From Escherichia coli (GTDB taxonomy: Bacteria > Pseudomonadota > Gammaproteobacteria > Enterobacterales > Enterobacteriaceae), in NCBI RefSeq assembly GCF_001677475.2, contig NZ_CP015229.1: DNA of 64,000 nucleotides, one strand, 5' to 3'. Positions 4,109-48,516 of the stretch are shown here, piece by piece; position 1 is the first letter of the stretch; the number at the start of each line of letters is the position of its first letter. Both the position numbers and the translations under genes were made by a program. Below the pieces are notes generated by a model. The model was not told the DNA's origin and did no database searches. It was given only the letters and a program-made list of their open reading frames with translations.

Positions 4109-5461
4109 TTATTGCCCCGCGACAGGTTTCAGCTCGATACGCTTGATATCGCCCACCAGCACCAGGTAGCTCAGTACCGCGATTAAGGCATGAACACCAA
4201 CATAAATCAGCGCCCCATTAAAGGAGCCAGTCGTGCCAACGATATAACCAATTGCGATTGGCGTGACGATGCCAGAAATGTTACCGAACATGTTGAACAG
4301 GCCACCGGAAAGACCGCTGATCTCTTTTGGCGCGGTATCTGCCATTACTGCCCAACCTAGCGCCCCGATGCCCTTACCGAAGAAGGCCAGCGCCATAAAG
4401 CCGATGATCATCCACTCAACATTGACGTAGTTGCAGAACACCATCACCATCGACAGCAACATGCCCATTACGATCGGTGTTTTACGCGCAATGTTCAGCG
4501 ATCCCGTGCGGCGCATCAGCCAGTCGGAAATAATCCCACCCAGCACACCGCCGATAAAACCGCAAACCGCCGGAACGGAAGCCACAAAGCCCGCTTTCAG
4601 AATCGACATCCCACGCGCCTGCACCAGATAAACCGGAAACCAGGTAATGAAAAAGTAAGTCAGGGCGTTGATACAGTACTGACCGATATAAACGCCGATC
4701 ATCATCCGTGACCCGAGCAGCTGTTTGATCTGCCCCCACTTCACGCTGAACGGCACTTTAACTTTGGTATTTTGCTGATCCATATTGATCAGCGCGCCAC
4801 CCGCGGCGATGTACTCCAACTCTTTCTGATTTACACCCGGATGTTGATTTGGCTCGTGGATGACTTTCAACCAGATAAAGCTGATGACAATGCCCAGACC
4901 GCCCATAAAGAAGAAGACGTGTGACCAGCCCACTTCATGCGTCAGCCAGCCCATAATCGGCGCGAAGATCACCGTTGCGAAGTATTGAGCGGAGTTAAAA
5001 ATCGACACCGCCGTTCCCCTTTCCTGCGCCGGAAACCAGGCCGCAACAATGCGACTGTTGCCGGGGAAAGATGGCGCTTCAGCAAGCCCGACCAGGAAGC
5101 GCAGCGTAAACAGGGCAACGATAATGCCGAATCCACTAAAGATATCGACGAAGCCTTGCAGCAAGGTAAACATCGACCAGATAAAGATCGACCAGAAGTA
5201 GACGCGTTTTGAACCAAAACGATCCAGCAACCAGCCACCTGGGATCTGCCCGATAACATAAGCCCATGAGAAGGCAGAGAACACATAGCCCATTCCCACG
5301 GGATCAAGGCCGATATCTTTGGCCATTTCCGAACCGGCAATAGAAAGCGTAGCGCGGTCGCCGTAGTTGAAGGATGTGACGATAAACAACATCACCACTA
5401 TCCAGTAACGAGCATTCGTGCGTTTTTCCACACTGCTCGCAGCCTGACTTAAAGAACTCAT
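4109..5461 (-). CDS. gudP: MFS transporter for D-glucarate/galactarate, 450 aa
   Basis: ORF 4109..5461; hydrophobic multi-TM protein, MFS signature; position upstream of gudXD. Confidence 0.92.
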
Positions 5462-45400: not shown

Positions 45401-45788
45401 TTGAGGAAAGCTGGAACAGTTTTCGCTTGTCGCTATCATCAGTCAGATAATGCCGCAGCAGGGTAAAGTCTTCGCGATCCAGCAATTGCGGCAGCAGAGT
45501 CATCAGTTTCCAGCTCATGCTCTGTTTGTTAAAGGCGCTCTCTTTGGGGATCTCCGGTAACACCCGGACGAACATATCCCAGATAAAGCTCGCAGGCAGC
45601 GGAAAATCAATGTTTGCCGCAATACCAAACTTTTGCGACAGGGTCATTTGCAGCCACTGTGCCATACCGGTACTTTGCACCAGAATCATCTCTGGTTCGA
45701 AAGGATCGTCCAGCCGTTCGCGTTCGACAATAAACTCCATCAACGCTTCCAGCACGTCCAGACGATTGGAATGGTAGACCCTTAACAT
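42420..45788 (-). CDS. recC: Exodeoxyribonuclease V gamma subunit, 1122 aa
   Basis: ORF 42420..45788; matches E. coli RecC length/N-terminus MLRVYHSNRLDVL. Confidence 0.94.
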   Translation of the reverse strand: MLRVYHSNRLDVLEALMEFIVERERLDDPFEPEMILVQSTGMAQWLQMTLSQKFGIAANIDFPLPASFIWDMFVRVLPEIPKESAFNKQSMSWKLMTLLPQLLDREDFTLLRHYLTDDSDKRKLFQLSSKAADLFDQYLVYRPDWLAQWETGHLVEGLGEAQAWQAPLWKALVEYTHELGQPRWHRANLYQRFIETLESATTCPPGLPSRVFICGISALPPVYLQALQALGKHIEIHLLFTNPCRYYWGDIKDPAYLAKLLTRQRRHSFEDRELPLFRDSENAGQLFNSDGEQDVGNPLLASWGKLGRDYIYLLSDLESSQELDAFVDVTPDNLLHNIQSDILELENRAVAGVNIEEFSRSDNKRPLDPLDSSITFHVCHSPQREVEVLHDRLLAMLEEDPTLTPRDIIVMVADIDSYSPFIQAVFGSAPADRYLPYAISDRRARQSHPVLEAFISLLSLPDSRFVSEDVLALLDVPVLAARFDITEEGLRYLRQWVNESGIRWGIDDDNVRELELPATGQHTWRFGLTRMLLGYAMESAQGEWQSVLPYDESSGLIAELVGHLASLLMQLNIWRRGLAQERPLEEWLPVCRDMLNAFFLPDAETEAAMTLIEQQWQAIIAEGLGAQYGDAVPLSLLRDELAQRLDQERISQRFLAGPVNICTLMPMRSIPFKVVCLLGMNDGVYPRQLAPLGFDLMSQKPKRGDRSRRDDDRYLFLEALISAQQKLYISYIGRSIQDNSERFPSVLVQELIDYIGQSHYLPGDEALNCDESEARVKAHLTCLHTRMPFDPQNYQPGERQSYAREWLPAASQAGKAHSEFVQPLPFTLPETVPLETLQRFWAHPVRAFFQMRLQVNFRTEDSEIPDTEPFILEGLSRYQINQQLLNALVEQDDAERLFRRFRAAGDLPYGAFGEIFWETQCQEMQQLADRVIACRQPGQSMEIDLACNGVQITGWLPQVQPDGLLRWRPSLLSVAQGMQLWLEHLVYCASGGNGESRLFLRKDGEWRFPPLAAEQALHYLSQLIEGYREGMSAPLLVLPESGGAWLKTCYDAQNDAMLDDDSTLQKARTKFLQAYEGNMMVRGEGDDIWYQRLWRQLTPETMEAIVEQSQRFLLPLFRFNQS

Positions 45789-45800
45789 AGCGGCTCCTGA

Positions 45801-46124
45801 CTACTGACGATTCGGGCAATGCAGGCGGGTCATCTCGCCTTCTCTGCCCCCGGGTGAAACTAGCGTAACGCTGATGCTGACACATCCCGCCTGCGATGTC
45901 TGCATTCGGTTGACCTGCCAGTTGGCAGGTGGCGAAATCGCGCGCAGTTGCGTTTGCTGCCAACTATGCCGCCAGAGCTGTTGGTACTGGTTTCTGCTGG
46001 CAAGACTGTTCATTAATGTTCGCTGGAAACCCGATAACGCAGTGACAATCATCACCATCAACACCATCGCCAACATTACCTCCGGCAGGCTAAAGCCTTG
46101 TTGATTCTTCAGGGAAGCTGACAT
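45801..46124 (-). CDS. ppdC: Prepilin peptidase-dependent pseudopilin-like protein C, 107 aa
   Basis: ORF 45801..46211; start at [16 protein letters not shown] (46124); type IV prepilin leader/cleavage motif G-F-x-x-x-E. Confidence 0.88.
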
Positions 46125-46516
46125 AACGCCCCCTCTTTCAGCGGACAAAAATCGCTCCAGCCGCGTGGCGAAAAAACAATGTTTCCATCGATGACTTCGC
46201 CTGTTCGCCACAACGAAACGCCTTCATAACCGGCAATCAATAAGGCTTCATTATCTGCCAGTAAACGCAAACAAACCCGGGCATCGGTTCCAGCGTACTG
46301 CGAGCACTGAACTGCGGGCTGCGTCTGCCAGGAGTGCATTTTTCCCCACGCCAGCGCCGACTGAACGATGGCCTGGCGGCGCAATGACTGACTTTCCATG
46401 CTCACGCGAGAGGCAAAACTGCGATCCTGTTGGCTCATTCCTTGTAATAGCAAGCTACCCAAAACCAGCAGCATCAGGACCAGAGCCAGTGACGAAACAC
46501 CCTTTTCGCGGTTCAC
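46109..46516 (-). CDS. ygdB: DUF2509 protein in the pseudopilin operon, 135 aa
   Basis: ORF 46109..46516; N-terminal hydrophobic segment; overlaps ppdC start and ppdB stop. Confidence 0.85.
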
Positions 46517-47076
46517 AGGTTGAATCCTGTCACGCTATAGCTGGCATCCACCACGGTTTGCGGATCAGCCTTGCTGGCAGCGTGCATATTAACCGTCAAC
46601 ACCGGCGAGAAACCGCTGACATCCTCTTGGGTAACCTGAAAAGTGTCGATAATGATGGCATCCGGATTAGTGACTTTATCCCAGCCCTTACCTTCACAGG
46701 ATGTCGCACCGCGTAGCGTTTCCAGCACATGCGCTTTCAGACGAAATCCAATCTGGTCGGACTCTTTTACCGGTTCGCGATCCCAGATACCGTTACTGTT
46801 CGCATCCCACTGCACAATGACACAGTCACCCTGTCCGACAATTTCCAGCCCTTCGCCGGTACAGCTGCCATGACAATAACCCGCCCTCTGGAGATGCTTC
46901 GCAACGGTAAATACCCGCAGCCAGATTTCATCTTCCAGCGCCAGCTTACGGGTGCTCGTTAAACTGTCACGCTGTAACGCAGGCAGAAAGCGTGCAGCCC
47001 CCAGCAACAATACGCTACTGATCGCCATAGCAATCAACACTTCCAGCAGAGAAAAACCTTGCTCTTTTACAGGCAT
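46513..47076 (-). CDS. ppdB: Prepilin peptidase-dependent pseudopilin-like protein B, 187 aa
   Basis: ORF 46513..47316; start at [18 protein letters not shown] (47076); prepilin motif. Confidence 0.88.
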
Positions 47077-47537
47077 CCTTCTGTTTCTCCTTGCTGACAA
47101 AGCCGGAGTCTTCCCCACGGCGAAACCACCAGCCACCACTCGCCCGTTGAGTTTTTGAAGCGAATATGCCCGGCCCATGCGGTATTGCGCAGGCCAAAGA
47201 AAGCAAGCGAAGGTGTCAGGTCGCTCATTTCGACTTCGGGCCAGCGTGGCACAAAGACCAATGGTGAACTGCCATGACAGGTATTCGCCCCAGCAACGGA
47301 ACTCACAAGGCACCATAACGTCCCCTCCCTGATAACACTGATACTGTGGTCGCGGTTATGCCAGTTGGCATCTTCACGTAAATAGAGCAAATAGTCCCGC
47401 GCCTGGCAGGCGGTTTGCCAAAGCCGTTGCGACTGCTGCCAGTATTGCCAGCCATAGAGCCCACTTGCGCTTAGCATGACCAAAATCAGCATCGCAACCA
47501 GCGTTTCAATCAGCGTATAACCACGTTGTGTTTTCAT
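47067..47537 (-). CDS. ppdA: Prepilin peptidase-dependent pseudopilin-like protein A, 156 aa
   Basis: ORF 47067..47537; N-terminus [19 protein letters not shown] (prepilin motif); overlaps ppdB start. Confidence 0.88.
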
Positions 47538-47721
47538 GCCGGCAGTATGGAGCGAGGAGAAAAAAAGACGAGGGCCAGTTTCTATTTCTTCGGCGCATCT
47601 TCCGGACTATTTACGCCGTTGCAGGACGTTGCAAAATTTCGGGAAGGTGTCTCGAAGAATTTAACGGAGGGTAAAAAAAACCGACGCACACTGGCGTCGG
47701 CTCTGGCAGGATGTTTCGTAA

Positions 47722-48516
47722 TTAGATAGCTACCGGCGCTTTAATGCCCGGATGCGGATCGTAGCCTTCAATCTCAAAGTCTTCGAAACGATAGTCGAAG
47801 ATGGATTTGGGTTTACGTTTGATAATCAACTTCGGCAGCGGACGCGGTTCGCGGCTTAATTGCAGATGAGTTTGATCCATATGATTGCTGTACAGGTGCG
47901 TATCGCCACCGGTCCAGACAAAATCACCCACATCCAGATCGCACTGCTGCGCCATCATATGCACCAGTAACGCGTAGCTGGCAATATTAAACGGCAGGCC
48001 GAGGAAGACGTCACAGGAGCGCTGATAAAGCTGACAAGAGAGTTTGCCGTCTGCCACATAGAACTGGAAGAATGCATGGCACGGTGCCAGCGCCATTTTA
48101 TCCAGTTCGCCTACGTTCCACGCTGAAACAATAATGCGGCGGGAATCCGGGTCGTTTTTCAGCTGGTTCAGTACCGTAGTGATCTGGTCAATATGACGAC
48201 CATCTGGCGTTGGCCAGGCGCGCCACTGTTTACCATACACTGGCCCGAGGTCGCCGTTTTCATCGGCCCATTCGTCCCAGATGGTGACATTGTTTTCGTG
48301 TAGATAAGCAATGTTAGTGTCGCCCTGCAGGAACCACAGCAGTTCGTGGATGATGGAACGCAGATGGCAACGTTTAGTTGTCACCAGCGGGAATCCATCC
48401 TGCAAGTTAAAACGCATCTGATGACCAAAAATGGAAAGCGTTCCGGTTCCGGTACGGTCGTTTTTCTGTGTGCCTTCGTCGAGCACTTTTTGCATCAGTT
48501 CTAAATACTGTTTCAT
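47722..48516 (-). CDS. thyA: Thymidylate synthase, 264 aa
   Basis: ORF 47722..48516; catalytic Cys motif [13 protein letters not shown]; matches E. coli ThyA. Confidence 0.96.

Follow-up and report, generated by a model that had tools for sequence, protein, structure and literature searches.

The analyzed window, a 64,000-nucleotide stretch of Escherichia coli DNA, carries four overlapping open reading frames on its minus strand at positions 45801-47537, in the interval between thyA and recC, and direct reading of the sequence returned exactly the coordinates given for them in an earlier note. The first gene, ppdA (47067-47537), encodes 156 amino acids with the leader MKTQRG/YTLIE (slash, predicted cleavage point) and a glutamate at position +5 (Glu+5), and its product is assigned to the GspH/FimU/FimT class of core minor pilins. 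The second, ppdB (46513-47076), encodes 187 amino acids with the leader MPVKEQG/FSLLE, also with Glu+5, and is assigned to the PilW/GspJ class. The third, ygdB (46109-46516), starts with GTG and encodes a 135-residue DUF2509 protein with the N-terminus MNREKG/VSSLA, assigned as the PilX/GspK-equivalent minor pilin, and the fourth, ppdC (45801-46124), encodes a 107-residue core minor pilin of the PilV/GspI class with the post-cleavage sequence FSLPE, again with Glu+5. All four genes lie on the minus strand and overlap by 10 nt (ppdA/ppdB), 4 nt (ppdB/ygdB, sequence GTGA), and 16 nt (ygdB/ppdC). The end of thyA is at position 47722, and the recC ATG is at 45788, 12 nt past the ppdC stop codon. 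A program-made listing of open reading frames gives longer versions of ppdB (267 amino acids) and ppdC (136 amino acids), which begin at in-frame start codons further upstream; the shorter versions were preferred because they are the ones in the RefSeq annotation and because their N-termini are conserved across 30 species. The flanks of the locus were compared as three segments, each of which aligned in one piece and at 100% coverage to annotated E. coli chromosomes, with the gene content gud/sda/fuc/.../recBCD/ptrA and thyA/lgt/ptsP/.../lysA. These are annotated chromosomal genes that include no pilus machinery, in agreement with the earlier observation that no prepilin peptidase, assembly ATPase, platform, or secretin gene is present in the window.

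The locus is very probably the known core E. coli operon ppdA-ppdB-ygdB-ppdC, whose four products serve as core minor pilins of a chromosomally dispersed type IVa pilus. We take this to be the pilus whose major pilin is PpdD and which also goes by the names haemorrhagic coli pilus and competence pilus. The NCBIfam equivalog models PRK10506, PRK10557, PRK11521, and PRK10332 were all passed, with scores of 249.6 versus 158, 324.2 versus 120, 255 versus 159, and 216 versus 86 bits, respectively. The genes, their order and overlaps, and the positions of thyA upstream and recC downstream are all as in the K-12 and EHEC operon (b2826-b2823). Protein identities to K-12 are 98.7% for PpdA, 94.7% for PpdB, 96.3% for YgdB, and 99.1% for PpdC, which amount to allelic differences only (2, 10, 4, and 1 amino acid changes, respectively). 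The 1737-base locus was found in 5425 of 5426 complete E. coli genomes when at least 80% of it had to align, a count that records the presence of the locus and says nothing about the intactness of the open reading frames in each genome, and the best match was 98.5% identical. Over its full length the window aligns collinearly with E. coli chromosomes, at 98.6-98.9% identity, and 98.9% is the highest identity that any complete E. coli genome in the collection reaches to any part of it. The description of the operon as an orphan without machinery proved to be an artefact of the 64-kb view: in K-12 the genes for the major pilin and the motor, ppdD-hofB-hofC, map to 114.5-117.5 kb, and those for the alignment proteins and the secretin, hofMNOPQ, to 3519-3523 kb. 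Nor can its function be called the least understood feature of the region, as had been proposed, because the literature already reports pilus priming, assembly defects in EHEC, and induction by Sxy. According to a paper that cites the work, PpdAB-YgdB-PpdC substitute for PulHIJK and prime the Klebsiella PulG pseudopilus in a pulHIJK mutant (Cisneros 2012), and a review relates that deletion of the four genes leads to strong pilus assembly defects in EHEC (Luna Rico 2019). The ppdAB-ygdB-ppdC genes are also part of a published E. coli pilus-assembly expression construct, modified from an earlier design, and gspO was used as well. The operon is described as induced by Sxy, with ppdA responding most strongly, as located upstream of recC, and as orthologous to comNOPQ; the induction of ppdA by Sxy and CRP is attributed by a citing paper to Sinha 2009 and to Jaskolska and Gerdes 2015. 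Sxy-induced DNA uptake in E. coli requires HofQ. What the pilus does physiologically remains a matter of debate, since natural transformation of E. coli under natural conditions is not known. The locus is therefore already known, and as the result of a genome scan it is real but ordinary and establishes nothing new.

The class III prepilin leaders with Glu+5 that had been read in PpdA, PpdB, and PpdC were confirmed by profile matches to TIGR02532 (24-29 bits versus a cut-off of 16.3) and to Pfam N_methyl (PF07963; E values of 1e-8 to 2e-6). Pfam also placed a T2SSppdC domain in PpdC and DUF2509 in YgdB. The leader motif is conserved across the 30 species, with the single exception of one species (L016) in which PpdA has Gly at +5. 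For YgdB, the Pfam search returned DUF2509 only, and there was no N_methyl or TIGR02532 match; the protein keeps Gly at position -1 and the hydrophobic helix, and its residue at +5 is Ala. The same holds across the YgdB family, in which Gly-1 is found in 59 of 60 sequences, Glu is found at +5 in none of 69 members, and four Cys positions hardly vary. Absence of Glu5 is characteristic of PilX and GspK and is the mark of this class of tip subunit, in which a review places ygdB. The proposal that ygdB encodes a fourth minor pilin without Glu+5 was thus upheld, but the label "atypical" attached to it was not, since the missing glutamate is what defines the class. YgdB fits the PilX/GspK-class subclass and not the canonical leader motif. 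It is a member of DUF2509 and not of Pfam PilX_N, with sub-threshold PilX_N matches in 4 of the 69 family members.

Structures were predicted for single chains only; PpdA, PpdB, and PpdC were joined by linkers and modeled with a paired alignment, solely to obtain the folds of the domains. The models show the pilin fold, a long N-terminal α-helix packed on an antiparallel β-sheet. YgdB was modeled confidently as a pilin, and its top structural matches were minor pilins and pseudopilins, while structural comparison matched the PpdA model to FimU/GspH structures and the PpdB model to the GspJ type. The fused model gave weak Foldseek E values, and its PpdC part was of low confidence. Searching the PDB by sequence gave nothing for PpdA, YgdB, and PpdC and an unusable best E value of 0.13 for PpdB. 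The earlier note had made its minor pilin reading depend on structural similarity to known minor pilins, and the reading survived, as the models do resemble minor pilins and pseudopilins. The equivalences in a review table are ppdA with FimU and GspH, ppdC with PilV and GspI, ppdB with PilW and GspJ, and ygdB with PilX and GspK. The structures lend weak support to PpdC as the I-class protein and YgdB as the K/X-class protein, assignments that draw more on the Glu5 rule and on the literature. The locus contains what is characteristic of a type IVa pilus core set: four clustered minor pilin genes, one per class, one of them without Glu5. A priming or tip complex of the four proteins is reported in the literature, and the geometry that we suggest for it is borrowed from homologues. 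In the FimU-PilV-PilW-PilX sets of Pseudomonas aeruginosa and Myxococcus, the gene order is H-I-J-K, whereas that of the operon in the window is H-J-K-I, and the E. coli set has no PilY1 adhesin or PilE gene (Table 1 of the review).

The name of the PpdC domain, weak N-terminal NCBIfam matches to GspH and GspJ, and the presence of type II secretion pseudopilins among the structural matches raise the question of whether the operon supplies spare minor pseudopilins to a type II secretion system (Gsp) and not subunits to a type IV pilus. We consider this very improbable. The E. coli gsp operons carry their own GspH-K, and the ppd genes lie outside the gsp operon and are regulated by Sxy. In the secretion system proteins GspH-GspI-GspJ-GspK (PDB 3CI0, 2KNQ), GspK is about 280 residues long in the crystal and has a large inserted domain that is missing from YgdB, with its 135 residues, and 78 of the 280 GspK residues align. 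The ability of the proteins to prime the PulG pseudopilus appears to favor a secretion role, but, as presented in the citing paper, this was a heterologous complementation designed to show that the sets are interchangeable. Moreover, type II secretion gene sets encode their own minor pseudopilins GspH-K in the review table, and a secretion role is also opposed by the co-regulation of the operon by Sxy with ppdD and hofM and by its orthology to comNOPQ, which is needed for DNA uptake.

The conservation of the locus was followed in 30 Enterobacteriaceae species, including members of Escherichia, Citrobacter, Enterobacter, Kluyvera, Phytobacter, and Kosakonia. Wherever the contig reaches far enough, the genes follow one another as lgt-thyA-ppdA-ppdB-ygdB-ppdC-recC, and most of the species share junctions of -10, -4, -16, and +12 nt. 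Within Escherichia, the dN/dS ratios are 0.08-0.18 for the four genes versus 0.01-0.03 for the flanking genes, values that clearly indicate purifying selection on every one of the four. Together with the NCBIfam scores, they mark the four as genuine genes and not open reading frames that arose by chance. The pilin genes evolve fast, with 50-70% protein identity between genera versus 91-99% for ThyA. Homologues of YgdB at 24-28% identity are encoded in the same cassette (GspH-like, PpdB (PF27121), DUF2509, and T2SSppdC), with recC and ptrA downstream where the contig continues. Damaged copies occur in a few lineages, with ygdB truncated in L004, ppdA frameshifted in L006, and ppdB/ygdB disrupted in L033, and the comparison of the window with K-12 gives a raised pN/pS of 0.41 for ppdB and ygdB. 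Added to the silence of the genes in laboratory culture, to the fact that natural transformation of E. coli is unseen without forced sxy expression, and to an invariant promoter-like block for recC within ppdC (described below), such damage could be taken to mean that the operon is a decaying relic, retained only for the recC promoter and ribosome-binding site in its 3' end and with no function of its own. There is very little chance that this is so: all four open reading frames are intact in the window, and the locus is nearly universal in E. coli; the low dN/dS ratios extend to every gene, beyond the 3' end of ppdC; the leaders, Cys pairs, GRxR motif, overlap lengths, and upstream candidate CRP-S site are conserved across genera; and the proteins work in published reconstitution and priming experiments. 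A functional set of core minor pilins remains our preferred interpretation.

The spacer between thyA and ppdA was examined by footprinting in 28 aligned sequences, those of the window and 27 other species. The CRP-S motif published for E. coli reads TGCGA-N6-TTCCA, and a candidate site with two mismatches to it, TTCGA-gacacc-TTCCC, is located on the minus strand at 47641-47656. The copy in the window is by itself no better than chance, with 80 matches to the motif window-wide versus 73 expected. At the orthologous position, 27 of the 28 aligned sequences have 0-3 mismatches and two species have a perfect site, and the element conserved in the footprint at 47656-47641 reads TTCGA-N6-TTCC(C/A/T). 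The palindromic H. influenzae-type CRP-S motif (TGCGA-N6-TCGCA, up to 2 mismatches) has no match in the thyA-ppdA spacer, and the asymmetric E. coli motif is the right model. The footprint also revealed a conserved direct repeat, TGCAAC-N4-TGCAAC (minus strand, 47617-47633), that begins 7 nt downstream of the CRP-S-like site and whose second copy forms CTGCAACG (47624-47617), 16 nt after the site. A sigma-54 reading of this repeat was rejected, the -24 GG being absent. The elements of the K-12 ppdD promoter are arranged in the same way and in register (TTCTTCG..., CRP-S site, 16 nt, CTGCAACG, and GGAA(T/G)(C/A)T), and a hand count of the two promoters gave an ungapped identity of 31 of 53 positions. 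Because of this in-register likeness, CTGCAACG probably serves as the -35 region of the Sxy/CRP promoter. That promoter would be of the CRP-S kind, class-I-type, and would start near 47590, with the distance between the CRP-S site and the start estimated from the similarity to the ppdD promoter. According to one paper, a promoter element beyond the CRP-S site has not been described. A second, inverted CRP-S-like sequence at 47589-47604, which departs from the motif at 3 positions in the window and at 1-2 in some species, was not counted as a site because it overlaps the likely -10 element (GAAGAT), which is common to the ppdD promoter.

A simple promoter scan of this region found no sigma-70 site; it also missed the intrinsic terminator of thyA, which folding confirmed. 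That terminator, a hairpin followed by a T-run on the minus strand at 47673-47704, folds with -16.6 kcal/mol (z = -5.0), and the pairing of its stem is maintained through compensatory changes across the species in the footprint. It insulates the operon from thyA transcription. Direct reading of the sequence revealed no Shine-Dalgarno sequence before the ppdA ATG; what precedes it, by 6 nt, is a conserved CA(t/c/g)ACT. These two features would be compatible with a leaderless ppdA mRNA, but the arrangement shared with ppdD favors a start close to 47590.

At its other end the operon runs closely into recC. The ppdC-recC junction, tcAGGAGccgct (minus strand, 45789-45800), is only 12 nt long and carries the recC Shine-Dalgarno sequence (AGGAG), and a gap of this length is conserved in 28 of the 30 species. 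The terminator scan detected no terminator-like site at this junction, where 12 nt leaves no room for one, and transcripts from the ppd promoter would therefore have to continue into recC. Within the whole operon, conservation is highest in TGTGTCAGCATCA (45884-45872), a stretch of ppdC that is invariant, synonymous sites included, in 27 aligned sequences (the window and 26 other species). This block resembles an extended -10 promoter and probably gives recC a constitutive promoter of its own; the candidate element spans 45874-45902 on the minus strand with the composition CAGACA, 17 nt, TGTGtCAGCAT. A recC promoter embedded in ppdC would explain the stable gene order.

Among the closest known systems in other genera is comN-comO-comP-comQ of Haemophilus influenzae (HI0938-0941), reported to be the counterpart of ppdAB-ygdB-ppdC. 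It too has four genes, stands immediately before recC with the same orientation, and is a member of the Sxy/CRP-S regulon, and its first gene encodes a GspH/FimT-class pilin. The comNOPQ genes are required for DNA uptake in H. influenzae. PpdA and ComN share very low identity, about 18%, and ComN has been proposed to be sequence-specific for the uptake sequence USS, whereas E. coli has no known uptake sequence. PpdA ends in ...WGRLRLC, where G142-R-L-R145 forms a GRxR motif; none of G142, R143, and R145 varies across 18 species. The defining feature of the FimT type of DNA-binding minor pilin is a C-terminal GRxR whose arginines bind DNA, and PpdA combines this motif with the GspH/FimT fold. 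It differs from FimT of Legionella and Acinetobacter in that disulfide-forming Cys residues follow the GRxR (Legionella FimT has none) and in that FimT binds DNA, whereas for E. coli PpdA binding is hypothesized only. By analogy, PpdA may be the likely DNA-contacting subunit in Sxy-induced uptake, a plausible idea but not a new one: a 2025 paper already notes the PpdA arginines and hypothesizes that the E. coli protein binds DNA.

These features can be combined into a probable mechanism. The operon is normally silent, and, following the literature, Sxy (TfoX) and cAMP-CRP would switch on the CRP-S promoter 5' of ppdA, for which the site described above is a candidate. The overlapping genes ppdA-ppdB-ygdB-ppdC are then translated together, and the four proteins enter the inner membrane, where, judging from the leader motif, a prepilin peptidase encoded elsewhere, GspO or PppA, would cut after the conserved Gly. 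PpdC (I-class), PpdB (J-class), and YgdB (K/X-class, without Glu+5, at the top of the fiber) may form a staggered priming complex, which PpdA (H/FimU/FimT-class) would join to PpdD. As reported for the operon and its homologues, this complex would start fiber assembly by HofB/HofC/HofMNOPQ and remain at the pilus tip, where the GRxR of PpdA would hypothetically contact DNA during Sxy-induced DNA uptake. Induced transcripts would read into recC, which also appears to have its own promoter within ppdC.

A broader interpretation is that the cassette is a DNA-receptor tip module wired to recombination, in which the PpdA GRxR binds DNA, CTGCAACG is a promoter box shared with ppdD, and read-through delivers transcripts to recC. 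We regard this as rather unlikely. If it were true, competence induction would also alter the supply of RecC, and CTGCAACG would be an extra promoter element. The residual interest of the locus, read as the core minor pilin operon of the PpdD pilus, concerns the natural expression conditions of the cryptic competence pilus, the binding of DNA by PpdA, and the co-induction of recC, and for these questions the conserved promoter blocks and the recC signals inside ppdC are concrete sequences that can be mutated.

On the alignment of the thyA-ppdA spacer from 28 sequences (the window and 27 other species), we found that the direct repeat TGCAAC-N4-TGCAAC, located upstream of ppdA at 47617-47633 on the minus strand, is strongly conserved. 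The second TGCAAC copy forms the 8-mer CTGCAACG, which is positioned 16 nt downstream of the candidate Sxy-dependent CRP site (CRP-S; 47641-47656, minus strand), and the identical 8-mer occurs at the matching offset, 16 nt after CRP-S, in the K-12 ppdD promoter (L034, ∼4158-4165). According to one paper, conservation beyond the CRP site itself has not been described for CRP-S promoters. In the same region, TTCGGCGCATCTTCCG (47589-47604, plus strand) resembles a second, inverted CRP-S site and overlaps the likely -10 region; it differs from CRP-S by three mismatches in the window and by one to two in Pseudocitrobacter and Enterobacter. Closer to the gene, no Shine-Dalgarno sequence was present before ppdA (47538-47560, minus strand), and the -10-like hexamer CA(t/c/g)ACT (47549-47544, minus strand) lies exactly 6 nt upstream of the ppdA ATG in 28 of 28 aligned sequences. 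This hexamer could point to a leaderless transcript or else be a different 5′ UTR element.

A promoter-like block lies within ppdC (45872-45902, minus strand). Here TGTGTCAGCATCA is unchanged, synonymous codon positions included, in 27 aligned sequences (the window and 26 other species), and CAGACA precedes the CAGCAT hexamer by 17 nt. Taken together, TGTGTCAGCATCA and CAGACA resemble a recC promoter of the extended -10 type situated inside the ppdC coding region.

Comparison of the window with K-12 (L036) gave a pN/pS of ∼0.41 for ppdB and ygdB (46109-47076); in lgt, thyA, and recC the ratio was 0.00-0.04. The amino acid changes are few, 10 in PpdB and 4 in YgdB, with those in PpdB clustered at residues 149-151 and 165-177. 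The higher ratios, which derive from these small counts, may mean that selection on subunits exposed at the tip is relaxed or diversifying. Damage to the operon in relatives is sporadic: in Escherichia sp. MOD1-EC7003 a truncated ygdB encodes 79 aa (L004, 1156-1395), the C-terminus of ppdA is frameshifted in Escherichia sp. E1V33 (L006, 4541-5062), ppdB/ygdB is disrupted in Kluyvera genomosp. 3 (L033, 4984-5914), and Gly replaces the Glu+5 residue of PpdA in Citrobacter sp. On2M (L016, 4540).

The window is collinear with all 5426 complete E. coli genomes compared, the identity of any window segment to these genomes did not exceed 98.9%, and the lineage of the window therefore seems to be either absent from that collection or held out of it. 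A PpdB search of the species-representative collection likewise yielded no locus from E. coli or Shigella. The median number of matches to segment 24001-45800 was 36 per E. coli genome, and the segment thus harbors a short dispersed repeat, which is presumably REP/BIME-type or tRNA-related.
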